Positions 12,653 to 32,083 of a stretch of 64,000 bases of DNA are shown one piece after another (within the stretch, counting starts at the first letter, position 1; every line of letters starts with the position of its first letter). The stretch is from positions 31,909-95,908 of the forward strand of contig JANXXE010000006.1 in assembly GCA_025350815.1 (NCBI GenBank), in the 5' to 3' direction. Origin of the DNA: Myxococcales bacterium. Its GTDB lineage: Bacteria; Myxococcota_A; Polyangia; Fen-1088. Below the pieces are notes generated by a model. It saw only the letters and a list, made by a program, of their open reading frames with translations. It made no database searches and was not told the origin of the DNA. A program made the position numbers and the translations under genes.

Positions 12653-13981
12653 ATGGCGAGGGGAGATACCTTGCAGGCAAAAAATCCGTGGCAGGAAGTG
12701 GTCGCCTTGCTGGGCGGGGCAGCGACGCAGGGTGAGGCGCGCGCGCCGCTCGATGCCGTGGCCCTGCAAAAGCATGGCGTGCGCGACCTGCAGTCGGCGG
12801 CGGCGAAGCTGGGCATCAAGGGGGCATCGCGGCTGGGCAAGAACAAGCTTGTCGAACGTGTGCTGGCCGCGCTGGCGGAGTGCGCGACAACCGGCACCGT
12901 CGCGCCCGCGGCCGCCGAGCCGGAATCACCCGATCAGGTTTTGCCGGGAAAGTTCAGCCTGGGCCGTGCCGCCGACGCGCGATCGACTGTGGTCGAACAC
13001 GTGCCGTGGGGCTATGGACAGGATCGGGTCACCGCCATGGCGGTCGATCCGGAAAATATCTTCGTATACTGGGAGCTGACTGACCGGGCCATCGAGCAAG
13101 CGCGCGCCGCCCTGGGCAAAGGCGGCCGTGATGCCTGGATCGACCTGCGGGTCTACGACAGCTCGGGGCGCATTTTCGATGGCACCAATGCGCACTCGTA
13201 TTTCGACCACAAGGTCGAACGCACGGATCGCCAGTGGTTCTTTCATGTCGGCAAGCCTGCCTCGACGGCAGTGGTCGATGTGGGCCTGCGGTCCACCGAA
13301 GGTTTCTTCGTGCGGATTGCGCGCTCGGGCCGCGTGGACTTTCCGCCCCGACAGCCCCAGCCCGCGACGCCGCCACAGTGGTTGACGGTGCGCCCGGCAT
13401 CCGAACCCGTCGCCCACGTGGGTCCGTCGCCGGGTGGCGGATCGACCCCGATGGGGCCCGGCGCGGTGGCACTGGCGGCCGAGATGGGCTTTTCACCCGC
13501 AGACAGGCACGCTGCTGCCGTCGACGCGGGCCCCGAACTTGCGCAACCCATCGCCTGGGACGGACCCCAGACGATCACCACGTGGCAGGAAGGCCCCTTC
13601 ACCCACCCGGTCGAGATCGAGCCGCCCGGCAATCAGGCGTGGCAGAACGCAGCGACGACGTACGATTTCGACGGCGTGACCCGCGTCCTTTACGGTCCGT
13701 GGCAGGTGGTGGTTCGCACCGTCAGCACCTTGCCTGATCGCCAGGTGCTGTCGCGCTGGGAAGTCTGGCGATCGTGGGTCGCGCGCAGCGAGATCTTCGA
13801 CATGGGCGTGCGGGACTTCAGTTTCGCCGGCGCAAGCGAAGTGCTGTTCCGGGGCGGCAGCCAGCGCATCATGCTGGGCGCCAGCGAACGTCTGGGCGGC
13901 GCCAGCGAACGTCTGGGTGGCGCCAGCGAGGGATTGTTCCCTGCCGCGCCGCAGGCCACTGACCGGACGCCGGGGGGCTGA
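12653..13981 (+). CDS. DUF4912 domain protein with Rho-N-like N-terminal domain and C-terminal GASE repeats
   Basis: LQ.AA.KLGI.G.SRL.K..L; PWGYGQDRVTAMAVDP..IFVYWE; adjacent to GH57 gene. Confidence 0.75.
   Translation: MARGDTLQAKNPWQEVVALLGGAATQGEARAPLDAVALQKHGVRDLQSAAAKLGIKGASRLGKNKLVERVLAALAECATTGTVAPAAAEPESPDQVLPGKFSLGRAADARSTVVEHVPWGYGQDRVTAMAVDPENIFVYWELTDRAIEQARAALGKGGRDAWIDLRVYDSSGRIFDGTNAHSYFDHKVERTDRQWFFHVGKPASTAVVDVGLRSTEGFFVRIARSGRVDFPPRQPQPATPPQWLTVRPASEPVAHVGPSPGGGSTPMGPGAVALAAEMGFSPADRHAAAVDAGPELAQPIAWDGPQTITTWQEGPFTHPVEIEPPGNQAWQNAATTYDFDGVTRVLYGPWQVVVRTVSTLPDRQVLSRWEVWRSWVARSEIFDMGVRDFSFAGASEVLFRGGSQRIMLGASERLGGASERLGGASEGLFPAAPQATDRTPGG
13877..13930 (+). repeat. 21-bp in-frame tandem repeat (GASERLG x2.5)
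   Basis: GGCGCCAGCGAACGTCTGGGY at 13877 and 13898, partial copy at 13919. Confidence 0.85.
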
Positions 13982-13985
13982 TCGA

Positions 13986-15569
13986 ATGCCCACGGGTTAT
14001 TTGGCCGTCGTCCTGCACGCGCATTTGCCGTTCGTACGCCACCCCGAAGATCCGACGGTGATGGAAGAACGCTGGCTGTACGAGGCCATCACCGGCACGT
14101 ATCTGCCACTGTTGGAAGTCTTCGAGGGGATGTTGGCCGACGGCGTTCCTTTTCGCTGCACCGTTTCGTTGTCGGCGCCGCTTATCACGATGCTGACGGA
14201 TGATCTGCTGAAGCAACGCTACGCCGACCATCTGGACGATCTGATCCGACTTGGCGACAAGGAGCTTGAACGCACGAAATCCGAGCCGCACTACCACCGG
14301 TTGGCGAAAATGTATTCCGACCGCTTTCAGCGGCTGCGGCATACCTGGCGCTGCCACGACGGGAATCTGGTCCGCGCCTTCCGCAAGCTGCAGGACGCCG
14401 GGCGGCTGGAGGTCATCACGTCGACCGCCACGCATGCCTTCTTTCCGCTGTTGGACCGCAACTGGGCGGCGCTGCGCGCGCAGGTTCACACGGCGGCGGA
14501 TCTGTACCAAAAGCATTTTGACCAGCGGCCGCGCGGCATGTGGCTGGGCGAGTGCGGTTACGTCCCTGGCTGCGACGAATTGCTGCGCGAGGCGGGCATT
14601 CGTTACTTCTTCGTCGACACGCACGCCATCCTGTTCGCCGACAGCCGCCCCGTCTACGGCGTCAACGCCCCGCTTTATTGCCCGACCGGCGTGGCGGCCT
14701 TCGGACGCGACACGGAATCGTCCGAGCAAGTGTGGAGCGCCAAGCAGGGCTACCCGGGCGATCCGCACTACCGGGATTTCTACCGCGACATCGGATTCGA
14801 TTTGCCCATGGATTACATCGGTCCGCACGTGCACCCCGAAGGCCACCGCATGTACACCGGGTTCAAGTACCAGGCCATCACGCACGCACAGTTGCATGAC
14901 AAATGGGTCTACGACCCTGAAGTGGCGCGCGGCAAGGCGGGCCTGCACGCGTCGCACTTTCGCGGCAACCGCGAACAGCAGGCGCAGCGACTGGCCGCAC
15001 ACATGGATCGCCCGCCCCTGATAGTCAGCCCCTACGACGCCGAGCTCTACGGCCACTGGTGGTACGAGGGTCCGATTTTTCTCAACGACCTGTTCCGGCA
15101 GATTCACTTTGACCAGAACGTGATTGAGACGATCACGCCGGGCGATTATCTGGAACGACACCCGACGAATCAGGTGGCGACGCCGTGTCAGTCGTCCTGG
15201 GGCGCCAAGGGCTACAGCGAGCACTGGTGCAATGAAACCAACGCCTGGACGTACCAGCACATCCACGTTGCGGCTGAACGAATGGCGGCGCTGGCACGTG
15301 GCAACCCGACTCCCGCGGCACTGACGCGTCGGGCGCTGAACCAGGCCGCACGCGAGCTGATGCTGGCCCAGAGCAGCGACTGGCCCTTTATCATGACCAC
15401 CGGGACCACGGTGCCGTACGCCACGCGCCGGTTCAACGAGCACATCGTGCGCTTCACGCGGCTGCACGACGAAATTCGCGACGGCCATATCAGCGAGCCA
15501 TGGCTTGCGACGGTGGAAGGCCAGGACAACATTTTCCCGGACGTCGACTACCGGTTGTACGCATCCTGA
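13986..15569 (+). CDS. GH57 1,4-alpha-glucan branching enzyme (DUF1957-containing)
   Basis: HAHLPFVRHP; WLYEAI..TYLPL; WLGECGY (nucleophile Glu); PYDAELYGHWWYEG (acid/base Asp); RELMLAQSSDWPF. Confidence 0.9.
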   Translation: MPTGYLAVVLHAHLPFVRHPEDPTVMEERWLYEAITGTYLPLLEVFEGMLADGVPFRCTVSLSAPLITMLTDDLLKQRYADHLDDLIRLGDKELERTKSEPHYHRLAKMYSDRFQRLRHTWRCHDGNLVRAFRKLQDAGRLEVITSTATHAFFPLLDRNWAALRAQVHTAADLYQKHFDQRPRGMWLGECGYVPGCDELLREAGIRYFFVDTHAILFADSRPVYGVNAPLYCPTGVAAFGRDTESSEQVWSAKQGYPGDPHYRDFYRDIGFDLPMDYIGPHVHPEGHRMYTGFKYQAITHAQLHDKWVYDPEVARGKAGLHASHFRGNREQQAQRLAAHMDRPPLIVSPYDAELYGHWWYEGPIFLNDLFRQIHFDQNVIETITPGDYLERHPTNQVATPCQSSWGAKGYSEHWCNETNAWTYQHIHVAAERMAALARGNPTPAALTRRALNQAARELMLAQSSDWPFIMTTGTTVPYATRRFNEHIVRFTRLHDEIRDGHISEPWLATVEGQDNIFPDVDYRLYAS

Positions 15570-15574
15570 TCGCA

Positions 15575-17065
15575 ATGCCCGCATCCCGTCCTCTGCGCGT
15601 CCTTTTTCTTAGCTCCGAGGTCGTCCCGTTCGCAAAAACCGGGGGCCTCGCCGATGTGTCGGGTGCGCTGCCGAAGGCACTGGCTGCGCGCAACATCGAC
15701 GTGCGCGTTGTCATGCCTCTTTACGCGGGCATGCAGTGGAACTTGCTGGCGCCCCTGGACGGCATCGTCAACGTGCCGATGTGGTGGGGCAACGCCCGAA
15801 CCGCCATCCGCCTGGGGACGCTGCCCGGCAGCGCGGTCCCGATCTATTTTCTCGAATTCAACCGCTACTTCGATCGTCCCTACTTGTACGGGCCGCCCGG
15901 GCAGGGCTATCCGGACAATTTCGAGCGCTTCAGCTTTTTGTCGCGCGCGGCGCTGGAGCTGGTGAAGGCGGTGGATTTCCTTCCGGACGTCATCCACTGC
16001 AACGACTGGCAGACGGCGCTTGCGCCCGTTTACGTCAACACCGTCGAATGGGGTAAACCCCTGCACGCTTGCGCCAGCGTCTACACGATTCACAATCTGG
16101 CGTATCAGGGCGTCGGCGATCCGGGCGCGTTGTTCATCACGGGCCTGGGCCGCGAGCACATGAATTCGGGCGAGTTCGAGCACTTCGGCGCGATGAATCT
16201 GACCAAGGCGGCGCTGCGCCACAGCACCATGCTGTCGACGGTCAGTCCCACGTACGCGAACGAGATCCAGACGGGCGCCTACGGCTTTGGCCTGGATGGC
16301 GTGCTGGCCGCTCGCAAGGCCGATTTGCAGGGGATTTTGAACGGCATCGACACCGACGAATGGAGCCCCGAGACTGATCCGATGATACCCGCGCATTTTT
16401 CCGTCGCGCGACCGGCGGGCAAGGCCGCGTGCAAGGCGGCGCTGCAGAAGGAAGCCGGCCTGCCCGTCGACCCGAAGATCCCACTGTTCGCGGTCGTCGG
16501 GCGGCTGACCGAGCAAAAGGGTTTCGACGTGCTGGCGCATGCGCTGGACCGTGTGCTGGGCTGGAACGTGCAGTTGGTGTTGCTGGGCAGCGGCGATCCC
16601 GAGGCTGAACAGTTCTTCACGGCCCTTGGCGCACAACGGGGCGACAAGATCAGGGCGTGGATCGGCTTCGACAACGCGCGCGCGCACCGGATCGAGGCCG
16701 GCGCGGATTTCTTTGTGATGCCCTCGCGCTTCGAGCCCTGCGGACTGAACCAGATGTACAGCCTGCGTTACGGCACGCTGCCAATTGTGCGGGCAACGGG
16801 TGGTCTGGTGGATACCGTGGCCAATTACGACGAGGCGACGGGCGGCGGCACGGGCTTCGTATTTCAGGATCTGACGAAGGACGCACTGGCGAACACCATC
16901 GGCTGGGCGGTATCGACCTACTGCGATCGGCCGCAGCACATCGCGGCCATGCGCAAGCGGGCGATGCAGCAGGATTTTTCCTGGGGTCGCGCTGCGGCGG
17001 CGTACGAGGCCCTGTATCGCGAGGCCTACCAGCGACGGCGCGGGCACCCGTTCGCCAGCGCTTAG
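15575..17065 (+). CDS. glgA: Glycogen synthase
   Basis: KTGGLADV; HCNDWQT; TIHNLAYQG; MPSRFEPCGLNQ. Confidence 0.95.
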   Translation: MPASRPLRVLFLSSEVVPFAKTGGLADVSGALPKALAARNIDVRVVMPLYAGMQWNLLAPLDGIVNVPMWWGNARTAIRLGTLPGSAVPIYFLEFNRYFDRPYLYGPPGQGYPDNFERFSFLSRAALELVKAVDFLPDVIHCNDWQTALAPVYVNTVEWGKPLHACASVYTIHNLAYQGVGDPGALFITGLGREHMNSGEFEHFGAMNLTKAALRHSTMLSTVSPTYANEIQTGAYGFGLDGVLAARKADLQGILNGIDTDEWSPETDPMIPAHFSVARPAGKAACKAALQKEAGLPVDPKIPLFAVVGRLTEQKGFDVLAHALDRVLGWNVQLVLLGSGDPEAEQFFTALGAQRGDKIRAWIGFDNARAHRIEAGADFFVMPSRFEPCGLNQMYSLRYGTLPIVRATGGLVDTVANYDEATGGGTGFVFQDLTKDALANTIGWAVSTYCDRPQHIAAMRKRAMQQDFSWGRAAAAYEALYREAYQRRRGHPFASA

Positions 17066-17997: not shown

Positions 17998-18011
17998 CTA
18001 CCATCTGGTAG
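17998..18011. promoter_or_regulatory. Candidate TetR operator CTACCA-TC-TGGTAG
   Basis: Perfect inverted repeat between divergent cupin and tetR genes. Confidence 0.55.
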
Positions 18012-18054
18012 GTAGGCAGGGCAAGTGTTCGGTCAAAATGGTACAAGTGGCGCC

Positions 18055-18636
18055 ATGGCATCAACGGACACTGCGGCCCGCATTCTGGACGTGGCCGAGC
18101 GTCTGGTTCAGGTTCACGGTTTCAATGGGTTCAGCTACGCGGACATCGCGGGCGAATTGAGTATCCGCAAGGCGAGCATCCATCATCACTTCCCCGCCAA
18201 GGCGGACCTCGGAGCGGCTTTGATCGCGCGCTACAAGAAGACGTTTTGCGGGGCGCTGGATGAAATCTATCAGAGCCGCGTCAGCGCCGACTTGAAGATC
18301 CAGGCGTATGCGAGGCTGTACACGAACGTCCTGCGAAAGCAGCGCATGTGTCTGTGTGGCATGCTGGCCGCCGACTTCCAGACCTTAGCGAAAGAGATGC
18401 GCGACGGCGTGACCGATTTCTTCAGCGTCAACGAAGCCTGGCTTACCAAGGTCCTGGAGGAAGGCCGCAAGGCCAAGGCCATTCACTTCGATGGCCGGGC
18501 ATCGACGCTGGCCGAGCTGCTGGTGAGCTCGCTTGAAGGGGCGATGCTGGTTGCGCGCTCCCATGGCAAGGTTTCGCGCTTTGAATCCGTGGTGAAGAAG
18601 TTGCTCAACAGCCTGCTGAACGCGGCTTCTGCCTGA
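18055..18636 (+). CDS. TetR/AcrR family regulator (NemR/LmrA-like)
   Basis: ILDVAE.L....GFNGFSYADIA.EL.IRKASIHHHFP.K; C-terminal CLCGML. Confidence 0.9.
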   Translation: MASTDTAARILDVAERLVQVHGFNGFSYADIAGELSIRKASIHHHFPAKADLGAALIARYKKTFCGALDEIYQSRVSADLKIQAYARLYTNVLRKQRMCLCGMLAADFQTLAKEMRDGVTDFFSVNEAWLTKVLEEGRKAKAIHFDGRASTLAELLVSSLEGAMLVARSHGKVSRFESVVKKLLNSLLNAASA

Positions 18637-18642
18637 GTCCAA

Positions 18643-21201
18643 TCACCCCGCGGGGGACCTGCTGGACAGGGCCTCGATCGCCGCGGACAGAGCGCCGAGC
18701 GGCTGGACGATTCGCTCGTCGCGGATCAGGTGCAGCATGGCTGCCCGCCCTTCCTCGATCGCCCGGTTGTCGCGCGCGCGGGCATACGCGGCCCGCACCT
18801 GCTGAATCAGCGGCACGAACAACTCGGCGTCGGCATCGGGGATGTGACGCCCGAGCGTTCGTTCCACGAACCCACCCGCGAGGACGCCGCGCGCGTAGGC
18901 CGCAAAGCGGTTGAAGTTCTCGTCCACGGCAACGGGGGGACCATCGGCGGCGGCACGCAGCAGGATCTCCCGGCTGGCGGCCACCGCGTGCGCAAGTTCG
19001 TCCTCGAGCAAGTCGCGAAGGAAATCTCGGTCGCGCGAAGCGACGCGTCGCTCACCCAGCCAGCCGGGCGGATGCAGGAACTCGATCGATTCGCGGGCGG
19101 CCCGCGCAAATCCGTTCTGCAACCGCGCGGGAAGGGCCAAACGCTCGGCAGCGACAGCGCCCAGAAGGGCGGCCTCTTGGCCGTCGAGAATGCGAGCAGG
19201 TTGTGGGCCACCCGGCTGCGCCCCGGGCGACGACTCGGCGAGGGTGCCGGCTTCAGCCGCGAAGCGACGCAAGCAGGCGAGGGCGGAGCTGCGCTTGAGC
19301 GCGCGTGCCTGGGCGAAGAAGTGCTGGTCCAGATAAGTGACCACCGCCGGCAGTCCGCTGGCCGCCAGTGCCACGGGATCTCCGCGTGTGGTCGCCGCAA
19401 GAGCGTCCCGCGCAGACAACGGCAACAACGCCTCGATGACGCCGCCAAGGGCAGTCTCGATGTGGCGGCGCAACTGTTGAATTTCGTCAGCGCCCAGCTG
19501 ATCGACCTTGTTCAACACGCCGAGGATGCGTTTGCCCGATTGGCGCGCCTGGCCCAGCGCCTCGCGCTCGCTGGCCTTGGCGGCCTGGCCGGCAGCGAAC
19601 AGCCACACGATGGCATCCGCCTCAATCAAGAACGCCCGCGCGATGGGTGCGTGTTCGGCGCGCAGGGAATTCAAACCGGGGGTATCGATCACCTCCATGC
19701 GGCGAAGAAGCTCAAGCGGCGCAAATATTTCAACCGCACGCACCGCCGCCGCGTCCGTATCGACGAGGCCGCCCAGAAAGGCGCCCACTTCCGCCGCGAC
19801 CAGATCCCGAACACGCCCGTCGTGGTACAGCACGCGCCCAGCTGGGGCACCCAGGCGCAGGACGTTTATCGTTGCTGTGGTCGGCGTGACGCCGACGGGC
19901 GCCACCACCTGGCCACACAGGGCGTTGATGAAGGACGACTTGCCCGCGTTGAACTCGCCCATTACGGCAATCGAAAGCGGCCGATCGAAAGCCTGGACCG
20001 CGCGCGTGGCAGATGCCCGCAGGGGCGCAAGCTCGGGCGTGCGTTCGGCCAGATCCCGGGCGAAACCCAAAAGAGCGAGCAGATTGTCCTCAGGCGGCGC
20101 CCCGGGCGACAGCGCGCGGGCCAAAAAACGCCTTGCCCCGTCGGTCGGTGCCAACTGCCCCAGCGTCAACAGTTGCTCGATGCTGATGCGCCCCTCGACA
20201 AAGGCGCGCGCGCACAGAACGTTGTCGTCCCCGGCGGCTGCGTCCGCGACAACCCGCGCGAGGGCGGCCTGATCCTCGGCGCCGAGACACAGGCGGATAA
20301 GCGCTACCCCCGATAGCCGCCTCGACCGCAAGGCGGCCTGCAGCGCCTCGTCGTAGCGGCCGGCACGTTCCGAGACGACGCACCAGGCGGCAAGGACAGC
20401 CGGCGCATCGGCATCGAGGCGCAGGGCCTCGCCACCGACGACCGTTGCCTCGTCGATGCGTCCAGTTTCAGCGAGGTGGCGGGCCAGGGCCGCACCGAGA
20501 ATTGCGCGCGCACGAACACCGTTGGCACCGCCCTTGACCCCGGCGCGCGCCAGCGACTCGCGCAACAAGCGTTCGATGGCGGGGCTGGCGCGGGCCGCAG
20601 CAGCCGCCTCGACAATCAGGTCCACGGACGCGCCTGGCGCCTGCGCCGCACGCAACAACCACTGCCACGCCTCGGGATCGCCCGCAGCCGACATCGCGCG
20701 CCCGAGGTCGGCCGCAAGTCCCAGATCATTTGGGGCAAGCTCTGCGGCCTTGGTCAGCTCTTGCACCGCCTGGGCGGAAGCCCCGGCCTGCAGGGCCAAC
20801 CGACCCCGCCCCGCGTGCGCGCGCGCCCGACGGGGATTGTCGGTGGCCGATGACAAGACCCGCCGCAAGGCATCGCGGGCCGGTGCCGCACGACCGAGGC
20901 GGGCCAGAACTTCGCCCAGGCCCAACCACGCATCAATGGCGCCCGACGAGCGATCGACGGCGCGCCCGAAGGCCACCACGGCGCCGTCATCGTCGCCGCG
21001 CCGGACGCGCACTTCGCCCAGGGCCACGAAAACCTGCGCAACGTCGGGCCAGCGAATGCCCAACGCCACCAGACGCGCCTCCGCTTGCGCCAGTTCGCCC
21101 CGGTCAGCCTGGGCAAGGGCAACCGTTATTTCCTCGCGTACACCGTCGGGCGCGGCATCGGCCCCGCTTAGCGTCGCAGTCAGCCGATCAAGCAAACCCA
21201 T
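18643..21201 (-). CDS. TPR-domain dynamin-like GTPase
   Basis: N-terminal TPR array; G1 GEFNAGKSS, G2 GVTPTT, G3 DTPG, G4 NKVD. Confidence 0.85.
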   Translation of the reverse strand: MGLLDRLTATLSGADAAPDGVREEITVALAQADRGELAQAEARLVALGIRWPDVAQVFVALGEVRVRRGDDDGAVVAFGRAVDRSSGAIDAWLGLGEVLARLGRAAPARDALRRVLSSATDNPRRARAHAGRGRLALQAGASAQAVQELTKAAELAPNDLGLAADLGRAMSAAGDPEAWQWLLRAAQAPGASVDLIVEAAAAARASPAIERLLRESLARAGVKGGANGVRARAILGAALARHLAETGRIDEATVVGGEALRLDADAPAVLAAWCVVSERAGRYDEALQAALRSRRLSGVALIRLCLGAEDQAALARVVADAAAGDDNVLCARAFVEGRISIEQLLTLGQLAPTDGARRFLARALSPGAPPEDNLLALLGFARDLAERTPELAPLRASATRAVQAFDRPLSIAVMGEFNAGKSSFINALCGQVVAPVGVTPTTATINVLRLGAPAGRVLYHDGRVRDLVAAEVGAFLGGLVDTDAAAVRAVEIFAPLELLRRMEVIDTPGLNSLRAEHAPIARAFLIEADAIVWLFAAGQAAKASEREALGQARQSGKRILGVLNKVDQLGADEIQQLRRHIETALGGVIEALLPLSARDALAATTRGDPVALAASGLPAVVTYLDQHFFAQARALKRSSALACLRRFAAEAGTLAESSPGAQPGGPQPARILDGQEAALLGAVAAERLALPARLQNGFARAARESIEFLHPPGWLGERRVASRDRDFLRDLLEDELAHAVAASREILLRAAADGPPVAVDENFNRFAAYARGVLAGGFVERTLGRHIPDADAELFVPLIQQVRAAYARARDNRAIEEGRAAMLHLIRDERIVQPLGALSAAIEALSSRSPAG

Positions 21202-21204
21202 GCC

Positions 21205-22731
21205 TTACCTGTGTGGCTCCCAGATGCCACGCAGGAACGCGAACGTCCGCTCTTCTTCGGTATCGAAGCGGCGACCCGGAAGACTGAGCACGAAAATCAC
21301 CAGCGCCGCCACGCCAAGCGCGATGAGCGCCGTCCGCAGGCGATGCCGGGGCGCGCGCAGGGCGAACACGCCGGCGGCGGCGAACACGATGCCGGCGGGC
21401 AAGAGCGACGGCAATCCGCGCAGGCCCAGCGCCGTGCCAAGTCCGTGGGGCGCGAAGCCTTCTTTCAACAGCCGCCAGGCCACATCGAACAGGGGGTTGT
21501 TGAACTGCACCGGGTAATGGGGGAACAGCACGCCCGAGACGCCGCACGTGACGACCGAGGCGACGACCAGGCCTGCCAGCCCCGCCGACAGTACCGGCCG
21601 TGGCCCCCACCAGTCTTTCCAGGTCAGCGCGATGGCCCACGCCAAGAAGGGCACCACCGCTGCGATGTAGCGCGGCCCGCCGGCGCACCAGCCACCGCGC
21701 CAGTTGGTCATGCCACACAGAAAGACGGCCATGGCGCACGTGACGGCCAGGACCGTGGCGTGGGCCCTGTCGCCCGTACGAACGGTCTTCACGACGGCGG
21801 CGACAAGTCCCGGCGCCAAAAACGGCGAAAAGATGAACAGGCCATAGTCCACATCGAAGAACGCCGCCTTCAGCACCTTGGCGCGCGGGCGGCCGAGGCC
21901 GAAGAAACCCTGTGTATGGGAAAGGCGAAAATTGTCATCGTCGATGTGGCCATAGGGAAATTCCCAGGGCTTGCCGAACAAGGCCGTGTGGTACAGGCCC
22001 AGTAGCACCGCCGGACCCAGCGCGCCCAGCAAGAAGAATCCTGCGCGCCGCTTGTGACGAACGGCCGCGAAGACTGTCAGGATCGCGGCCGCAAACAGCG
22101 TCTGATATTCGAACACCACGGCGAGGCCGGCCAAGAGACCTGCGACGATCAATCGACGATTCGACTGCTCGCCGCTGCGGGCGTCGGCGATGAACAAGAA
22201 GCTGCTGAAGATTGCGGCCGCGCTCGGGGCGTGGCCGACGAAGCCGACGCCGTAGGTGTACATCATCGTGCCAAGGCCGAGCCCGACCACCAGCAGATCG
22301 CGCGCCCACGGTGAGCCTGTTTCGCGTTCGACTTGTCGGGCGAAAAACAACAAGAAAAGACACAGCGGCAGCGCCACTGCGAACACGCGCAGTGTCCAGG
22401 TCACCTCGCGCACCGAAGGCGATTGTCCTGTCAGAAGCCGCGACAGCCGATCGTGAACAAACATCACCGGCACGCCGAGCAGTGACGTCCCCGGTGCCTT
22501 GCTGGAATAAAGCCGCGTGCCGAAGGACGCGCGGTCCGCGACCTCGCCCCATTCGGCCTGCACGTCATTGATGGCGAACGTGCCGTGCGCGACGATCGCG
22601 CGCGTCATCCAGATGCGCACGTTCTCGTTGGGATTGTTCAGCTTGGGAAAATACGGAAAGACGATCAGATACGCGACAGCCACGCACAGCCAGGCGGCGT
22701 GGCGGCGCAGGACGGTTTCGTTCCCCGTCAC
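21205..22731 (-). CDS. Multi-TM protein, GT-C (PMT/ArnT-like) glycosyltransferase-like
   Basis: About a dozen hydrophobic segments; loop after TM1 NPNE..R...D...YSSKAPG; GLFIFSPF; W.GGW..GPRY. Confidence 0.6.
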   Translation of the reverse strand: MTGNETVLRRHAAWLCVAVAYLIVFPYFPKLNNPNENVRIWMTRAIVAHGTFAINDVQAEWGEVADRASFGTRLYSSKAPGTSLLGVPVMFVHDRLSRLLTGQSPSVREVTWTLRVFAVALPLCLFLLFFARQVERETGSPWARDLLVVGLGLGTMMYTYGVGFVGHAPSAAAIFSSFLFIADARSGEQSNRRLIVAGLLAGLAVVFEYQTLFAAAILTVFAAVRHKRRAGFFLLGALGPAVLLGLYHTALFGKPWEFPYGHIDDDNFRLSHTQGFFGLGRPRAKVLKAAFFDVDYGLFIFSPFLAPGLVAAVVKTVRTGDRAHATVLAVTCAMAVFLCGMTNWRGGWCAGGPRYIAAVVPFLAWAIALTWKDWWGPRPVLSAGLAGLVVASVVTCGVSGVLFPHYPVQFNNPLFDVAWRLLKEGFAPHGLGTALGLRGLPSLLPAGIVFAAAGVFALRAPRHRLRTALIALGVAALVIFVLSLPGRRFDTEEERTFAFLRGIWEPHR

Positions 22732-22734
22732 GCG

Positions 22735-24546
22735 CTAGCCCTCGGCCCCGACGTCGGGGGCCAGCTCGGTCTGCTGCCACAGGGCTTGCCGGATGTCTGC
22801 GATTTGCTCGTCGACGGCCTTGAGTCCGCGTTCCGATTCGTCGATCGAGGCGGCGACTGGCGTGCCAGCGACAGTGGCGTCGTGTTTGAGGCGCTCGTCA
22901 AGCGCACGCGCCAACACCTCGGCAATTCCGCGCGCCAGCGCAGAGCCCGCTTCGGCAACGAAGTCGTTCAGGCGCGCCGCGAAGCCATCGATGATCTCGT
23001 CGAGCTTGGGCGCCAGCAGGGCGGCCACGCGGCGAACGGACGCGGGCGCCTGCCGTTTCGCCTCGGCCTTGATTTCCTGCGCCACCCGCGCGCGCAAGAT
23101 GACGGCCAGGATGGGCACCGCCAGGGTCAGCAAACCGCCGACCAGCGTGTTCACGAATAGAAAGACCGTCGTGCCCAGCGCGCCGAGGGCAAAGATCGAG
23201 GCATCGTAACGGAAGCCATCAACGCCGATCGCGACGCGCGATTCCCCCACGGCCAACTCGGCGGCAACATCGTTCGTCAGCCGCGCGGCGCTCTCATTGG
23301 CGACCTCGATGACCGTCTGGGCCAGGCGCTCAAGCTCGGCCGCCACCACCGCGCCTTCCGCTTCAAGCCAGCTTTTCCAGGTGTCCTGGACAAACGCGCC
23401 CAGGTAACGCTGGATGTCCGGCGCCGTCGCTGCGTCGATCTGCGCCGGCAACACCTGGACAAACTCGTCAGTGAACGCCACCAAATCCTGGCGGACCCGC
23501 GCTTTTAGCCCGGTGGTTTCCGCCCGGATGGTGGCCGCCGCCCGGTCGAACGCGTGCCGCCCGGCCTTGAAGCGATCTTCGGCCCGCGCCACCCGCTCGG
23601 CCAGTTCGGGCAGCGGCAAGTCCAGTGTCCGCCGGCGCATGGCCAGACTTTGGCGCACAAAACCTGACAGCCGCCCGGCATCGGCAAGCGCGTGATCGAA
23701 GACCAGCCGGCGCCGATCGCGACCCACGATCGCCTTCAGATGGGCGAAAAGCGGGATCATTCCCGAGCCCTCGACATCACCGGCCAGCGCCCGCCTGGCC
23801 GCGATGGGAAACAGCGGCGGCTCGGGCACGATTTCGCCCAGGTGGCGGCGGGCAAATGCCAGCGCCTCGGCAAGCTCGGCGGGCTCCAGCAGGTCGGCCT
23901 TGGTGATCACGAAGACCAGCCGGTCACGGGCCGAACGCAGGATTCGTTCTTCCAGGAACTGGCGTTCCGAGGCCGTCAGGATTTGTGTCGCGTCCAGCAG
24001 GAAGACTGCGGCGTCGGCGCGCGGCACGTAGCCATACGTGATGTCGGCGCGTTGGTCGTTGATGTCGTTGACCCCGGGCGTGTCGACCAGCGTGAGGTGG
24101 TCGCGCAAAAAAGCGGCAGGATGCCGGATGTCGAGATGGTCCAGTTCGGCGCCGTCACTGCGTCCGGCAGCCGCTTGCCCGTCGACGGTCAGCCAGTCGA
24201 CCAGCTGCCGCGGCTCCAGCGCGCGCCGCTCGCCGCCGGCGAATACCGCCTCCACGCTGAACGATGCCCCATACTGAATGTGGGCGATGGCGGCCGTCGT
24301 CGGCGTGATGCCGACCGGCAGGACAGGCGCCCCCAGCAACGCATTGATGAAGGTGGATTTGCCGTGGTTGAACTCGCCCAGGACCACCAGCGAAAAACGT
24401 TCGTCTTCAAGCTTGGGCAGACGGGTCGTCCGGATATCGCGCGCCACGGAATAAAGGCCGGCGGCATGGGCCACGTCCGCCAGGTCTTCGAGTACCCCAC
24501 GGATGGCGATTTTTTGTGCCTCCAGCGTTCCTGCGCGGGCGCTCAT
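22735..24546 (-). CDS. Bacterial dynamin-like protein with membrane hairpin
   Basis: GEFNHGKST, GITPTT, DTPG, TKAD; hydrophobic IFALGALGTTVFLFVNTLVGGLLTLAVPILAVIL; true start ATG 24546 (ATGA overlap). Confidence 0.9.
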   Translation of the reverse strand: MSARAGTLEAQKIAIRGVLEDLADVAHAAGLYSVARDIRTTRLPKLEDERFSLVVLGEFNHGKSTFINALLGAPVLPVGITPTTAAIAHIQYGASFSVEAVFAGGERRALEPRQLVDWLTVDGQAAAGRSDGAELDHLDIRHPAAFLRDHLTLVDTPGVNDINDQRADITYGYVPRADAAVFLLDATQILTASERQFLEERILRSARDRLVFVITKADLLEPAELAEALAFARRHLGEIVPEPPLFPIAARRALAGDVEGSGMIPLFAHLKAIVGRDRRRLVFDHALADAGRLSGFVRQSLAMRRRTLDLPLPELAERVARAEDRFKAGRHAFDRAAATIRAETTGLKARVRQDLVAFTDEFVQVLPAQIDAATAPDIQRYLGAFVQDTWKSWLEAEGAVVAAELERLAQTVIEVANESAARLTNDVAAELAVGESRVAIGVDGFRYDASIFALGALGTTVFLFVNTLVGGLLTLAVPILAVILRARVAQEIKAEAKRQAPASVRRVAALLAPKLDEIIDGFAARLNDFVAEAGSALARGIAEVLARALDERLKHDATVAGTPVAASIDESERGLKAVDEQIADIRQALWQQTELAPDVGAEG

Positions 24547-25337
24547 GTGACAGCCGCCAGCAACCGGGCGACCTGGGCGTCGCAGTCGTCCATCGACAAG
24601 GCCGGCGGGCCCGCAGCGTCTTCTTGTCCGAGTCCGCTGCGATAGAAGGTCGTCGCCGCAAACAGCTTCAGCGCCGCGACCCGCGGCCCCGGGGCGGCCG
24701 TCAGCTTGACCAGAGCAGCCGTCGTCGCCTCGAGATCCCTGGTGCACAGCAGGCTGGCGCGGTCGCAGGTGATCACGGCCCGCCGCGCCCAGCCGAGCAA
24801 CGCCAGCACCGCCGGACGGGCCGCCCAGCGCACGACAAGGCCGCCCGTCGTTTGCAGGAAGTGCAGGGCCGAGAGGTACACCGCGTGGCCGTTGTGGATG
24901 TGCCCGCACTGCTGGCCGATGACCGACAGCAGTTCGGTATCGGACAGGCGATCGATGAGCGAACCGTCGACAACGACGACCGCATCGTCGGCCGCCCCCA
25001 GCGTGCGCGCGGTCAAACTGCCAAGGCCGGGGGCCACATAGACGCCGGGCACGGGGATTTGAAGAACGTCCGCGCAGTGTTCGACCAGGCGCTGGATTTG
25101 CGGGAACTGCCGGTCGCTGACGCGCACCGCGCTGGCCAGCAATTGAGTGCGGCCCGCGGTCTGCCAAAAGCGGGCACCGGCCTGCACCGCCAGCATCACC
25201 GGCGGCACCTTTTCGATCGTGGCGCGTACGCCCCGATCGCCGGCGTAGGCGTAGACCGCCCCCTGACGCGCGCGCGCCGACGCCTCACCCTTGCGGGCGG
25301 CGACGTAACGGCCAAACGAGATATCGGGCTTGGTCAT
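24543..25337 (-). CDS. M48 (HtpX/Ste24-like) peptidase homolog, predicted inactive
   Basis: VRVS.RQFP.I..LV..CA..L.IP.P.VYV; EL.SVIG-QQCGH-I in place of HExxH; W.RRA-V-ITCDRA in place of AE..CDRA. Confidence 0.75.
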   Translation of the reverse strand: MTKPDISFGRYVAARKGEASARARQGAVYAYAGDRGVRATIEKVPPVMLAVQAGARFWQTAGRTQLLASAVRVSDRQFPQIQRLVEHCADVLQIPVPGVYVAPGLGSLTARTLGAADDAVVVVDGSLIDRLSDTELLSVIGQQCGHIHNGHAVYLSALHFLQTTGGLVVRWAARPAVLALLGWARRAVITCDRASLLCTRDLEATTAALVKLTAAPGPRVAALKLFAATTFYRSGLGQEDAAGPPALSMDDCDAQVARLLAAVT

Positions 25338-25409
25338 TTCGGCCTGAGCCAGCCGCGTCAGCGGTGGGCGACCATGATAGCGCACGGCCGGGGTGCTTCT
25401 GGCTGTACA

Positions 25410-25925
25410 ATGGCGGATCTCATGTCGCCGCTGTCCCCTGCGCCCCTTGCCGTCGCTGCCCCGCCCGAAGTGTCTCCCAACGCGGAGGCTTTCATGCGCC
25501 GGGCGCTCGAGATAGCGGGCGAGGCCGCGCTGCGCGGGGAAGTGCCGGTCGGTGCCCTGGTCGTCGTGCGCGGCGAAGTCGTCGCGGTCGCCCACAACGA
25601 GCGCGAAACCCTGAACGATCCCACCGCGCATGCTGAGATCGTGGCTCTGCGGCGGGCGGCGGCGGCGCTGGGAAGCTGGCGCCTGGTCGACGCCGAGCTG
25701 TTCGTCACCATGGAACCGTGCCCGATGTGCGCGGGGGCCCTGGTCAACGCACGTCTGCGCCGCGTGGTGTATGGCTGCGACGATCCCAAGGCCGGCGCCG
25801 TGCGCACGCTGTACCGGCTGCTCGATGATCCGCGACTGAACCACCGGGTCGAGGTCGTTCCGGGCGTCCTCGCCGCCGAAAGCGCCGCCTTGCTGCGTTC
25901 GTTCTTCTCCCGCCTGCGCCGCTGA
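25410..25925 (+). CDS. tadA: tRNA adenosine(34) deaminase
   Basis: EVPVGA; DPTAHAE; EPCPMCAGA; DPKAGA; LNH; start 25410 or 25422. Confidence 0.9.
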   Translation: MADLMSPLSPAPLAVAAPPEVSPNAEAFMRRALEIAGEAALRGEVPVGALVVVRGEVVAVAHNERETLNDPTAHAEIVALRRAAAALGSWRLVDAELFVTMEPCPMCAGALVNARLRRVVYGCDDPKAGAVRTLYRLLDDPRLNHRVEVVPGVLAAESAALLRSFFSRLRR

Positions 25926-25928
25926 CGT

Positions 25929-26687
25929 TCAGCGCGCCGGCGCGGTACGGGCCGTGATGGTCGGGTCGGTGCGGCCGCGCAGCTCGCGCGCGCGCAAATC
26001 CGATATCGCCCGCGACAACGCCCCGGCGATCTTGTCCCAGCCCGCTTCAGTGGCCAGGAAATTGCCGTCCTGCGGGTGATCGAGAAAGCCGACCTCGACC
26101 AGCACCGCCGGCATCTTGAGACCTTGCAAAACGTCCAGCTTCGCACCCGCCTGCTTGATGCCACGGTCGCGATCCGATCCCAGGGCATCGGCCATTTGCC
26201 ATTCGATTCGCTGGGCCGCAGCCAGACTCTCGACGGCGGTCGCGCGCACCTGATGGGCCGCCCAGGCCCCGTCGACCGGCGATGCAGGCGCGATGGCCGC
26301 CAGGCCCGCGTCGTGATCCACGCCCTGCACCGGCAGGACATAGATCTCGAAGCCCCGCTGCATCCCACGCGAGGGCCCAAACGGCGACGCGTTCGTGTGG
26401 ATGCTGACGAACAGCCGCGCGCCGGCCTCGTTGCCACAGCGAACCCGCGCGTTGATGGGGACCAGAACGTCGGCCTCGCGGCACAGGACCACACGCAGGC
26501 CGCGCTCGGCCAGCAGATTCCTGCGAACGCGCCGGGCGATTTCTAGCGTCACGTGCTTTTCGTACAGCCCCTTGCGCAGGCCCTCGCCGCCGCAGTTCTT
26601 TCCGCCGTGTCCCGGGTCGACGGCCACAGTGAACCCCGCACCAGCCGGGGCCAACGCCAGCCAGCCAAGGACAAGCGCGGCGATCAC
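25929..26687 (-). CDS. N-acetylmuramoyl-L-alanine amidase (Amidase_3)
   Basis: Signal peptide; DPGHGG; EK.VTL; FVSIHTN; LVEVGFL. Confidence 0.9.
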   Translation of the reverse strand: MIAALVLGWLALAPAGAGFTVAVDPGHGGKNCGGEGLRKGLYEKHVTLEIARRVRRNLLAERGLRVVLCREADVLVPINARVRCGNEAGARLFVSIHTNASPFGPSRGMQRGFEIYVLPVQGVDHDAGLAAIAPASPVDGAWAAHQVRATAVESLAAAQRIEWQMADALGSDRDRGIKQAGAKLDVLQGLKMPAVLVEVGFLDHPQDGNFLATEAGWDKIAGALSRAISDLRARELRGRTDPTITARTAPAR

Positions 26688-26770
26688 CGACCCAAGATAT
26701 CACGCACGCTACGACGCCGGCTGCTGGAACAAAGGGGCGGCCCGCGTCCACGCGGCCTATACTGGCGGCG

Positions 26771-27751
26771 ATGAACGGGCGGCGCCTCAACCTCACGGCC
26801 GTCCTGGCCCTGCTGGCCGTGCTTGAGCTCGTCATCAACCGCATCGTGGGACACCTCTTCGTCCCGATGTCCCGCGCGAACACGCTGCCGGGTTCGGTGC
26901 TCGGCGAGACAGGGACCTTCTTGTTCTACCTGGTCGGCGTCCTGGGCCTATGGCTCTTCGCCGCGGGCCTCACCGGACTTTTGCTCAGACGGGAATTTTT
27001 CCCGCAGACCGTGCGTCTGACCGCCGCTCTGTTTGGCCTTTTCTTTGTGTTCTTCGCCGGCCCCGGCACCGTCTTTGGCCAGCTGCCACCGAGATTGTTC
27101 GTCCACCTGCAGACCAGCCAGGGATTTGTCGCGTGGACGCTGGCGCTCGCATGCTGGCGAAACGTCGCCCCTTTGCGCGCCAAGGTGGGCGTGACGCTAT
27201 TTGCCCTGCCCAGCATCCTGCACGCAGCCGGTTTATTTGGCGCCCAGATGGGCTGGGGCCGGGGCGAACAACTGGCTGCGGATCTGTTTTCCGCAAGCGA
27301 GCTGGTCGGGCTGTTCGCGGGCGCGGCCTCGCCGGTATTGCTGTCACCGCGGCCCTTCGCAGGGTCAGCGCGGGCGCTTGCGCTGACCTGGTGTGCGGGC
27401 GCCGCCGTGCTGGGGCTGCTGGTGGCGGGCCTGGTCGCCAACTTCGAACTGATCCAAATGATGGCGCTTTACGGCTTGCGACTGGACATTCCGCCGTTGC
27501 GATCGGCCCAGGCGATCCTTTACCTGGCATTGCTGGCCGTGTCTGCCTGGGGCCTCACCACCTGCATCTTGCAATGCCTTGTCACCCCGGGTGGCACGCG
27601 CCTGGCCGGCTACGGGCTGATTCTGGTGGCCAGCGCCGGCCACCAGGTATCCACCGTCAGCCAGCTGGTTTTGGCCGCAGCGGGGCTGGTTGCGTTGGCG
27701 GTCGGGACGGCGCGCGCCGCACACCCAGCGGCCGCCCGATTCGCAACCTGA
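26771..27751 (+). CDS. Hypothetical integral membrane protein
   Basis: About 10 hydrophobic segments, no recognised motif. Confidence 0.6.
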   Translation: MNGRRLNLTAVLALLAVLELVINRIVGHLFVPMSRANTLPGSVLGETGTFLFYLVGVLGLWLFAAGLTGLLLRREFFPQTVRLTAALFGLFFVFFAGPGTVFGQLPPRLFVHLQTSQGFVAWTLALACWRNVAPLRAKVGVTLFALPSILHAAGLFGAQMGWGRGEQLAADLFSASELVGLFAGAASPVLLSPRPFAGSARALALTWCAGAAVLGLLVAGLVANFELIQMMALYGLRLDIPPLRSAQAILYLALLAVSAWGLTTCILQCLVTPGGTRLAGYGLILVASAGHQVSTVSQLVLAAAGLVALAVGTARAAHPAAARFAT

Positions 27752-27765
27752 TTACAACCTGATTA
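27744..27765. repeat. Perfect 11-bp tandem duplication CAACCTGATTA x2 over convergent stop codons
   Basis: 27744-27754 = 27755-27765. Confidence 0.9.
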
Positions 27766-29157
27766 CTTGGGTGCGGTGCCCCGCGGCGGTTCCAGCGCGC
27801 CAGGCGACACAGGCGCGGCGCCCGGCGTGACAGCGGACGGTTCCGACCCCTTGCCCGCCGCCTCTTGCGATTCGAGCTGCGCAATCTGGCGACGGGCCGC
27901 CGACACGTCCGCACCGGCGGGATTGCTTACCAGGTAGCGACGAAAGGCTTCGAGGGCACCCGCCTGATCCCCCAGCGCCCGGTAGGCCTCGGCCAGTCCA
28001 AACATCGCGGGACCGTACGCGCTGATGACGAGCGCTCGTTTGAAGTGCGCCGTGGCCAGCGGCACCCGCCCGCGATCCAGCATGACGTAACCCAACCCCG
28101 ATATGGCCTCGACCCCCGCCGGACGCGCGCGCAAGGCACGTTCGTACAGTTTCTGCGCCTTTTCGTTGCCGCCGTTTTCAAGCAAGCGGTCCGCCGCCTG
28201 CACCAGCTTCTCGTAGGAATCCTCATAGCCGCCCGCCTTGACGGCCGCGGTTCGAGCCACGGGAGCTGTCGGGGCCACCTCTTCGGCCGCCACAGCGGGG
28301 ACAACAGCGGCAGGCGGCGGGGCGGCCGCGACCTTCGGGGCGGCCGCGGGGATCGCAGCGGGCACCGCCGGGGGCAGCGCAGAAGGTGCCGGCGATACAC
28401 TGACCACACCTGTCGGAATCCAGTGCCGGGCTACCGCGAGGTACAGAACGCCAGCGACGACGACCAGACCCAGGGCGACATTCCGCCCGGTGTGACCGTC
28501 CGACAACCGCACGACCGAGGTGTCAATCTCGGCCACGCGGTCCGAAAAATCGAGACCATCGTCGCTGAGCGAACGCGCGTACAGCGACGGGTTGGACTGC
28601 GACGGCCGCAGCGAGGCGCCCAGCGAGCCCGCCTCGGGGCGCGCAATGGGGCGGGGCATCGAGGGACTTGGACGGGGACCGGCACTGCGGGCCCGCTCGG
28701 CCTCGAGTTTGAGCTGGGCGGACACCGACCGAGCACCCGGAGGCGGACTGGCCTGGGCGGTCGGCGGACGCGGGGCCGAGACCGCGCGGGCGCGATCAGC
28801 GTCATCGACCACATCGAAGAACGGGGCCAGCTCGACGATTTCGCCCAGCCGCCTCCAGGCCTGCCCGGTGCGCGAGATCTTGTCGTCGCGGGTGATCTTG
28901 CGTTCGATGATCCACTTTTGCAGCGACGTCAGATTGCGAAATCGATGCGACTGGCCGTCAGCCGTCTCCAGCAACCAATCCGCGGGCGCCGGCGCACTTT
29001 CGGCTTCGGGAATGGGCGGCGGTGCGGTCGTCGCGGGCGCGCGCTTGACCAAGAAGGTATGGCCGCATGCCGTGCACTGCACCGATGTGCCGGCCTCGCT
29101 GACGCTGTTGTTTTCGAGTTCATACTCGGTCCGACAGCGCTCGCAGCGAACGTCCAT
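27763..29157 (-). CDS. Zinc-ribbon, GYF_2-like domain, TM, C-terminal TPR (GltJ/AgmX-like N-terminus)
   Basis: MDVRCERC.TEY...VQCTACGHTF; LQKWI.E.KI..DD.I.R.G..W.RL.EI.EL..FF; TM VALGLVVVAGVLYLAV; TPR tail. Confidence 0.75.
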   Translation of the reverse strand: MDVRCERCRTEYELENNSVSEAGTSVQCTACGHTFLVKRAPATTAPPPIPEAESAPAPADWLLETADGQSHRFRNLTSLQKWIIERKITRDDKISRTGQAWRRLGEIVELAPFFDVVDDADRARAVSAPRPPTAQASPPPGARSVSAQLKLEAERARSAGPRPSPSMPRPIARPEAGSLGASLRPSQSNPSLYARSLSDDGLDFSDRVAEIDTSVVRLSDGHTGRNVALGLVVVAGVLYLAVARHWIPTGVVSVSPAPSALPPAVPAAIPAAAPKVAAAPPPAAVVPAVAAEEVAPTAPVARTAAVKAGGYEDSYEKLVQAADRLLENGGNEKAQKLYERALRARPAGVEAISGLGYVMLDRGRVPLATAHFKRALVISAYGPAMFGLAEAYRALGDQAGALEAFRRYLVSNPAGADVSAARRQIAQLESQEAAGKGSEPSAVTPGAAPVSPGALEPPRGTAPK

Positions 29158-31305: not shown

Positions 31306-32083
31306 AGTCGCGCTTCCGAAAGATCAGCATGGCGAGGATCAAGACCACCAGCGAATAGCCAAGACCATACAGCGTCGTCCAGATCATGTAGTCGGCGCCG
31401 ACAAAGTCACGGTGGATGCTGGCCACCTGCGCACCCACGATCGCGCCCGACGGATAGAACAGGTGCAGATTCGGCACGACCGTGCAGCCTGCTTCGAAAA
31501 GAATCCTGGCCACGCCCCCCGAAGCTTTACCCAGCGCGCGCAAGTCGGGCACGGCGCGGCCGACGATGAAGCAGCCGAGGGCGAAAAACCCCGACAGAAA
31601 AGGGCTGGAAAACGCCGAGAAAAATACCGCAATCGACGTCACGACGATGACGTTCAGGTACAGCAACCACAGCGCCTTGGCCATGGCCAGATCGAAGGAC
31701 GCGTCCTGCGCCACCAGCGTCAGGCCAAGAACCAGACCCATCACCGCCAGTTGCACCGCCAGCGTCATCAGCATGCCCAGCCACTTGCCCAGGACGAACT
31801 CCCAGCGGTGCAGGGGCTTGGGCAAGATCGTGTAGACGGTCTTCAGATCCAGTTCCTTGTACAAGAGGTTCACGCCGACGAAGATCGCAATCAGAACGCC
31901 GAAGGCGTCAATCCCGAACAGCCCGACGTCGCGGGTCATGCGCACGTCTTCGTGCAGGGACAGGCTGCCGAGTGCAAGGGCCGAAAGAATCAGCAAGACG
32001 GCAAAGAACAGCAGGCTGTAGAGAATCTTGTTCCGCACGGCCTCGCGGAAGGTGTTGCGAGCGATGGCAAGAACGCGCCTCAT
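31298..32083 (-). CDS. ABC transporter permease (PilI/ABC-2-like)
   Basis: IARNTFREAVRNK; KE...KTVYTIL.KP..R.EFVLGK; IF.KRDF. Confidence 0.85.
   Translation of the reverse strand: MRRVLAIARNTFREAVRNKILYSLLFFAVLLILSALALGSLSLHEDVRMTRDVGLFGIDAFGVLIAIFVGVNLLYKELDLKTVYTILPKPLHRWEFVLGKWLGMLMTLAVQLAVMGLVLGLTLVAQDASFDLAMAKALWLLYLNVIVVTSIAVFFSAFSSPFLSGFFALGCFIVGRAVPDLRALGKASGGVARILFEAGCTVVPNLHLFYPSGAIVGAQVASIHRDFVGADYMIWTTLYGLGYSLVVLILAMLIFRKRDFV

Follow-up and report, generated by a model that had tools for sequence, protein, structure and literature searches.

What is encoded by four closely spaced genes for an M48-like protein, two dynamin-like proteins and a membrane protein resembling GT-C glycosyltransferases, and do all four belong to one system? 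The question is raised by a stretch of 64,000 nucleotides from a high-GC Myxococcales bacterium of the class Polyangia (assembly GCA_025350815.1, contig JANXXE010000006.1, forward-strand positions 31,909 to 95,908), which as a whole is referred to here as the window. The cluster comprises, in the order of reading, the M48-like gene, the gene for a dynamin-like protein with a hydrophobic hairpin (DLP1), the GT-C gene, and the gene for a second dynamin-like protein with an array of TPR repeats (TPR-DLP2). A first reading, made from the sequence alone and referred to here as the sequence-only reading, had seen in these genes a probable operon led by a dead protease, in which an enzyme splits a pair of dynamins, and had suggested that it could couple membrane remodelling or envelope repair to glycosylation dependent on lipid carriers. 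The answer at which we arrive is a different one: we read the cluster as a locally rearranged form of a Myxococcota module in which the gene of an M48-family protein is translationally coupled to the DLP1 gene.

What we define here as the module follows from the neighbourhoods of its members. Each of the four proteins was searched in a panel made up of the window's own genome, 24 from its family, and 16 from its class (41 in all), and two sets of loci were compared: 20 loci around M48-like and DLP1 matches (L013-L032), chosen by whole-protein search regardless of the motif of the M48-like protein and hence called the unbiased set, and 80 Polyangia loci from GTDB species representatives, with at least 11 contigs common to both. 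DLP1 is encoded directly after the M48-like gene in 20/20 loci of the former and in 75/80 of the latter, where the other five contigs end less than 1 kb past the M48 gene, and the median gap between the M48-like and DLP1 matches is 39-57 nucleotides. TPR-DLP2 directly follows DLP1 in 13/20 and 45/80 loci, and a contig end lies within 3 kb after DLP1 in 1/20 and 21/80. The GT-C gene stands between the two dynamin genes in 4/20 and 4/80 loci, which come from the same four genomes. DLP1 itself was found in 19 of the 24 genomes of the window's family.

The association can be followed across the phylum. A profile of the M48-like protein, run against 251 Myxococcota genomes, gave full-length matches above 200 bits in about 52 of them, the rest, at 127 bits or less, being other M48 paralogues; in the 30 best loci from this sample, DLP1 adjoins the M48-like gene 29 times, and one Myxococcota family outside the Polyangia has an M48-like orthologue in 23/23 genomes. 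Among the carriers of the module in this sample are single-contig genomes of 5.0 and 9.1 Mb. Relatives are encoded in at least 545 stretches of the genome collection, and the M48-like family amounts to 393 representatives at 50% identity (E ≤ 1e-30). From these adjacency counts, the conserved core consists of the M48-like protein and DLP1, with TPR-DLP2 as a frequent third member in Polyangia. That the dynamins are led by an M48-like gene, as the sequence-only reading had it, thus holds, because the pairing of an M48-family gene with the dynamin gene is highly conserved in all three samples, and there is good support for a dynamin system that has a partner of the M48 family.

Three further arrangements were seen in the course of these searches. 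In a non-Polyangia family that has only the M48-like gene and DLP1, an FHA-domain protein of 553-592 residues is encoded upstream on the same strand (L158:9141-10802, minus; L159:3618-5396, plus), and this protein may be a further partner there. In genome G076, an intact HECGH orthologue with no DLP1 match beside it (L157:6094-6981) has as its neighbours a gene for a histidine-kinase-like ATPase and unannotated open reading frames. Finally, a distant pair of DLP1-like and DLP2-like genes (26% and 39% identity, G034:C12:2516413-2521119) occurs in a genome whose M48 matches lie only on another contig, showing that dynamin pairs lacking an M48 partner exist in the class.

The M48-like protein of the window belongs to the M48 family, with 37.7 bits against the Pfam model Peptidase_M48 (PF01435, cut-off 20.3), and is without the HExxH motif. 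It carries QQCGH where orthologues have HECGH, V188 takes the place of the Glu acting as third zinc ligand (found, within RRAEITCDR, in 16/20 orthologues of the unbiased set), and some 40 residues, among them the conserved C-terminal HPxLPKR stretch, are deleted in frame. Judging from these residues, the window copy cannot be a metalloprotease. The description of a dead protease is therefore right for this copy and wrong for the system, since HExxH and the downstream Glu, both intact, are kept in 11/20 unbiased orthologues, whose motif aligns with HEVSH of the HtpX domain of Vibrio (3cqb). At least one catalytic substitution is present in the other 9/20, which read RECGH, HACGH (twice), HHCGH, RECGR/V, GAFGH/Q, SALGR/D, CALGR/N, and YACGQ/A. 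A genome of another family (L025) shows the same deletion as the window copy together with the Glu-to-Val change, and the motif state changes at least four times on the DLP1 tree. The dead protease is thus a derived local state and not a design feature.

In a Kyte-Doolittle hydropathy scan (19-residue window, membrane mark ≥1.6), the M48-like protein has no segment resembling a signal peptide or a transmembrane helix, and for this reason we predict a soluble protein of the cytoplasm, an HtpX-core-like protein of an uncurated subfamily whose N-terminal 70 or so residues are specific to it. None of the four proteins, nor any of three intact M48 orthologues, reaches a family cut-off in NCBIfam, where the HtpX models give the M48-like proteins 18-62 bits against cut-offs of 245-422. 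The AlphaFold2 model has a predicted local distance difference test score (pLDDT) of 88.3, and its top Foldseek rows are M48 proteins (3c37 with E 3.2e-3, ZMPSTE24, an HtpX domain, and BepA), these being weak matches of which none reaches E 1e-3, with template-modelling scores (TM-scores) of 0.28-0.42.

Both dynamin-like proteins fall into the dynamin superfamily (PF00350), each having a large GTPase domain with the motifs G1-G4. These read GEFNHGKST, TPTT, DTPG, and TKAD in DLP1, all of them invariant in 17 orthologues, and GEFNAGKSS, TPTT, DTPG, and NKVD in DLP2. The Dynamin_N domain is matched at 8.6e-30 in DLP1 and at 2.1e-21 in DLP2, where it covers residues 411-566 and is accompanied by TPR families. 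The hydrophobic hairpin of DLP1 comprises residues 449-490 in the hydropathy scan; DLP2 has no segment at or above 1.6 in the same scan, its maximum being 1.52, and begins with a TPR array (about residues 30-180), from which a helical linker leads to the GTPase domain and on to a helical C-terminal part, with the combination of TPR and Dynamin_N recurring in 9/9 orthologues scanned. The motifs read in both proteins, and the hairpin in one as against the TPR array in the other, on which hydropathy and Pfam agree, bear out what had been seen in the letters alone. Among solved structures, the sequence of DLP1 matches BDLP from Nostoc (2j68, 5.3e-21), DLP1 from Campylobacter (5owv_A, 2.8e-19), and IniA from Mycobacterium (6j72, 5.8e-15), and the best dynamin match of DLP2 is Campylobacter DLP2 (5owv_C, 1.5e-17); because these are the closest solved relatives, the two proteins are read as a heterotypic pair. 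Two relatives, at 27.0 and 27.6, narrowly miss the cut-off of 28.3 for the helical-domain model PF21808.

The GT-C protein has no match to a Pfam family, gives 60 bits against NCBIfam NF047440 (LA_3751/LA_3752 putative glycosyltransferase, cut-off 200), and one of its homologues carries a precomputed GT87 match. Its fold is the one that had been proposed for it: the AlphaFold2 model, built on 33 homologues (pLDDT 90.1, predicted TM-score 0.92), retrieves from the PDB with Foldseek a top list of 37 matches that are all GT-C glycosyltransferases at probability 1.00. They include ArnT (5ezm, E 5.8e-7, TM-score 0.45), PimE (9dm5, 1.0e-3), AglB, EmbA/B/C, STT3, DPY19, ALG3/6/9/12, and Pmt4, at a sequence identity of 8-16%. 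E36 (in NPNENxRxW, just past the first helix), D66, K78, and D145 are invariant in the 33 homologues, and the enzyme looks intact, a putative glycosyltransferase dependent on polyprenyl-phosphate sugars.

The position of this gene is another matter. It is found between the dynamins in 5/41 genomes, those of the window (G000), G004, G018, G012, and G010, the GT-C proteins of these five genera being 56-65% identical to the window's, so that the gene was not borne out as a conserved neighbour of the dynamins. In G004, antisense genes for a PIN-domain protein and a sigma-70-like (sigma-factor-like) protein split it from TPR-DLP2 (L013:7738-10292). In genomes without the insertion, the 12 loci inspected have a GT-C orthologue (about 45-50% identical) elsewhere; its recurrent neighbours are GT2, asparagine-synthase, and methyltransferase genes, with a gene for leucyl-tRNA synthetase or prepilin peptidase not far off. 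The presence of the GT-C gene changes three times on a 24-row DLP1 tree (quick search, branch support 82-93 around the window), and the simplest reading is that an orthologue moved into the operon in a common ancestor of several genera and was later lost in some of them. From its distribution, the gene is a recent, lineage-specific insertion, a passenger of one subclade. In the window's genome, the operon copy is the sole close copy, other matches being at most 32% identical; paralogues at 29-32% identity (L125:2459-5826 and L126:2059-8846) adjoin a GT2-methyltransferase fusion gene, and dTDP-rhamnose/GDP-mannose genes with a TPR protein, so this genome has a small family of GT-C enzymes.

Two observations bear on a contact between the core proteins. 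Among the checks that the sequence-only reading had proposed was complex prediction, and for the pair of DLP1 and the M48-like protein it gave weak support, with a score of 0.54 vs 0.01 for the best of three controls, an agreement between runs of no less than 48% of the contacts, and a partner pLDDT of at least 75. In the calibration of this test, the mark was reached by 116/157 solved complexes and 2/215 mismatched pairs. Given the strict adjacency of the genes, the prediction modestly raises the odds of a DLP1/M48-like complex. The other observation is a chain of 906 residues (P0142), found in a library of 1.84 billion proteins, in which an intact M48 domain (HECGH, 86 bits vs PF01435) precedes a Dynamin_N domain and then a hydrophobic hairpin. 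Its metagenome relatives (L161-L172) are 48-51% identical, and the 11 loci holding both parts have them as two adjacent genes in different frames (11/11). The composition of P0142 suggests an organism of lower GC content.

On this basis, the following mechanism would account for the module. The hairpin would fix DLP1 in the cytoplasmic membrane, and DLP1 would pair with DLP2 like DLP1/DLP2 of Campylobacter, DLP2 being soluble and offering its TPR repeats as a platform for further partners. Together, the pair would tether the inner membrane and seal or fuse it in a GTP-dependent manner, for instance after envelope damage, the kind of activity that has reportedly been seen for DynA and IniA. The M48-family protein would bind DLP1 and control it. 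In most lineages it would probably be an active zinc protease, which may cleave the dynamin or a cofactor; in this genome it would be limited to non-catalytic binding or regulation. The GT-C gene would have come from a glycan locus with GT2 and asparagine-synthase genes into the operon of one subclade, where it would probably be co-transcribed and most likely keep its own job in envelope glycosylation, its co-expression being an accident of position. We give this whole statement, covering composition, evolution, and mechanism, a probability of roughly 0.6; taken separately, composition and evolution are very probable, and the mechanism is tentative. Gene content, conservation, motif states, and folds are observed; binding, membrane repair, the regulatory role, and co-transcription are inferred.

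Several points weigh against this interpretation. DLP2 is absent within 3 kb in 2/20 and 5/80 loci, and three loci inspected in other Myxococcota have the M48-like gene and DLP1 without DLP2, which means that the dynamin pair is not universal. One of the 30 phylum loci (L143/L157) has an M48-like gene with no DLP1 match beside it. The motif is intact in 76/80 Polyangia loci, a count that is biased because this set was retrieved with patterns built from eight closer M48-like rows carrying the intact motif. Complex scores of 0.60 or lower came from only 18/157 solved complexes and from both of the mismatched pairs that passed, a band in which predictions are often wrong. P0142 is a single representative and may be an artefact of gene calling or assembly, since its relatives are unfused. 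The role in membrane repair would follow by analogy from DynA and IniA. Lastly, the GT-C insertion has been kept by five genera, four of which space the genes tightly, and some benefit of co-expression is possible.

One alternative is that all four genes form one machine, in which dynamin remodelling is coupled through the GT-C enzyme to lipid-carrier glycosylation, with a pseudo-protease built in. The overlap and the two short gaps between the genes, the confirmed GT-C fold, an arrangement kept at 56-65% GT-C identity over five genera in whose genomes the operon copy is the sole close one, and a degenerate M48 motif in 4/5 of the GT-C-containing operons would all fit such a machine. Contrary to it, the GT-C gene separates the dynamins in only 5/41 genomes and 4/80 loci, DLP2 directly follows DLP1 in 13/20 and 45/80, and the operon of G004 has PIN and sigma-factor-like genes between GT-C and DLP2. 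Moreover, GT-C orthologues usually stand in glycan loci beside GT2, asparagine-synthase, and methyltransferase genes, their presence in the operon changes three times on the DLP1 tree, and the five genomes are kin, so that the link between GT-C and M48 decay is not independent evidence. Because the GT-C gene is rarely found between the dynamins and the pseudo-protease is not systemic, a coupling of dynamins to glycosylation, which the sequence-only reading had put forward, is poorly supported, and we give the integrated machine little credence. The opposite simplification, namely that the M48-like gene of the window is a functionless, decaying relic and that DLP1/DLP2 alone make up the working unit, could invoke the loss by substitution of the catalytic Glu as well as of two zinc ligands, the deletion, and the catalytic substitutions in 9/20 unbiased orthologues, by which activity would often be dispensable. 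The dead window copy is, however, not decaying: its frame is open throughout, its C-terminus is conserved, its stop overlaps the DLP1 start in an ATGA, and its model folds (pLDDT 88.3). Its identity to the nearest orthologue is 61%, no lower than that of DLP1 (60%), GT-C (56%), or DLP2 (53%), and the same deletion is kept with a dead site in the distant genome of L025. None of the 18 cleanly assembled loci of the unbiased set has a frameshifted or truncated M48-like copy, and the interrupted frames of L016 and L024 come with breaks in DLP1. A relic is accordingly very unlikely.

An anti-phage defence of the dynamin kind (LeoA/LeoBC-like), with the M48-family protein as effector or sensor, has in its favour that both dynamins partly match LeoA and LeoBC in PADLOC (57.4 and 47.6 bits), and that DynA of Bacillus reportedly protects against phage. 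In the comparison with PADLOC, another of the checks proposed at the outset, these matches are weak and partial (13-57 bits), and the M48-like and GT-C proteins match nothing in that database. The module furthermore looks vertically inherited, with DLP1 in 19/24 genomes of the window's family and the M48-like protein in 23/23 of another Myxococcota family, and the neighbours of the cluster (amidase, glycogen genes, and a TetR regulator) are housekeeping and not defence genes. Defence is thus very unlikely as the role of the module, and the Myxococcota module of an M48-family protein with one or two dynamins is the reading that we retain.

Among described systems, the closest to this module is DLP1/DLP2 of Campylobacter jejuni (5owv), where two different dynamin-like GTPase genes likewise lie side by side. 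Contrary to that pair, DLP2 here has an N-terminal TPR/helical extension of about 400 residues; the sequence matches span the GTPase domains only. We know of no M48-family gene described for the Campylobacter pair. BDLP of Nostoc punctiforme (2j68) and IniA of Mycobacterium (6j72) have the same order of parts as predicted for DLP1, in which the GTPase domain is followed by a helical region and the C-terminal helices are preceded by a hydrophobic element for insertion into the membrane. The partners of IniA are IniB and IniC, and to our knowledge no protease-family partner is known for BDLP or IniA. The M48-like protein can be compared with HtpX and other M48 proteins, with which it shares the Pfam match above cut-off, the alignment of its orthologues' HExxH with 3cqb, and the top fold rows; it differs from them in having no transmembrane helices, in its own N-terminal region, and, in the window copy, in the loss of the catalytic residues. 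The GT-C protein resembles ArnT, PimE, and other GT-C enzymes in its fold and in the GT2 neighbours of its orthologues, and its invariant acidic residues close to the first loop may correspond to the catalytic Asp of ArnT or PglB, whereas sequence identity is low and no curated family is reached at cut-off.

A further parallel comes from mitochondria, where OMA1, an integral membrane M48 protease, processes the dynamin-like GTPase OPA1. In both cases an M48-family protein is functionally tied to a membrane-anchored dynamin, here through the strict neighbourhood of the genes, a single fusion protein, and a contact predicted with weak support. The M48-like protein differs in having no hydrophobic segment, and its nearest curated models are those of HtpX, all far below cut-off; the comparison is an analogy only. 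A more far-reaching version of our reading, in which the M48-family protease would be the dynamin's dedicated regulator across Myxococcota, acting by binding and, where the site is intact, by cleavage, as a bacterial counterpart of OMA1-OPA1 that was converted to a non-catalytic regulator several times independently, is in our judgement unlikely.

Dynamins of bacteria have been described singly, in tandem pairs, and as fusions, so that a paired arrangement as such is not new. An M48-family gene coupled to a dynamin across hundreds of myxobacterial genomes is a concrete candidate for a regulatory partner and may bear on how dynamins are switched on at damaged or dividing membranes, its retention after catalytic loss offers a natural experiment that sets binding against proteolysis, and the whole may represent a prokaryotic parallel to the protease-controlled dynamins of mitochondria. 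A literature search, whose coverage left out most subscription journals, returned nothing on an M48/HtpX partner of bacterial dynamins, on its recurrent catalytic loss, on TPR-dynamins, or on myxobacterial dynamins.

The positions of the genes and of their flanks are collected in the table below. Open reading frame calls and the sequence at the junctions agree on the operon-like layout that had been read at first sight, with four minus-strand genes, one overlap, and two short gaps: the M48-like stop and the DLP1 start overlap in the ATGA at 24543-24546 (read directly as cacATGAgc), and gaps of 3 nucleotides separate DLP1 from GT-C (TAGcgcGTG) and GT-C from DLP2 (TAAggcATG). The start of the M48-like gene at 25337 matches the N-termini of its orthologues in an alignment with 20 of them.

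Table. Features of the cluster and its flanks, in positions of the window.
Feature	Positions	Strand	Size	Remarks
TetR-family regulator	18025..18636	plus, convergent		TetR_N 7.1e-10; marks the 3' boundary of the cluster
TPR-DLP2 gene	18643..21201	minus	852 residues	TPR array and dynamin GTPase domain
GT-C gene	21205..22731	minus	508 residues	GTG start; integral membrane protein
DLP1 gene	22735..24546	minus	603 residues	dynamin-like GTPase with hydrophobic hairpin
M48-like gene	24543..25337	minus	264 residues	first of the cluster; called as open reading frame
Gap 5' of the M48-like gene	25338..25928		591 nucleotides	no Pfam match when translated
N-acetylmuramoyl-L-alanine amidase (Amidase_3)	25929..26687	minus		Pfam 2.4e-38; upstream neighbour

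The gap upstream of the M48-like gene is likely the promoter region of the cluster. A scan of positions 18000-27000 returned 0 sigma-70-like sites, and in the cluster region six terminator-like sites were counted vs a shuffle mean of 7.1, which is no enrichment, all six lying within genes. A search of sequencing runs returned none of RNA. The Amidase_3 gene was considered as a fifth member and rejected, as it is found upstream in just 3/20 and 9/80 loci and lies here behind the 591-nucleotide gap; it neighbours the cluster in near relatives only and is excluded from the system. Further upstream, beyond the amidase region, a minus-strand gene at 27763-29157 encodes a protein of 464 residues that starts with a zinc ribbon and carries TPR repeats in its C-terminal part. 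On the other side of the cluster, an ordinary glycogen locus occupies positions 13917-17065 on the plus strand, where the gene of a GH57 branching enzyme (Glyco_hydro_57 and BE_C) adjoins that of a glycogen/starch synthase (Glyco_transf_5).

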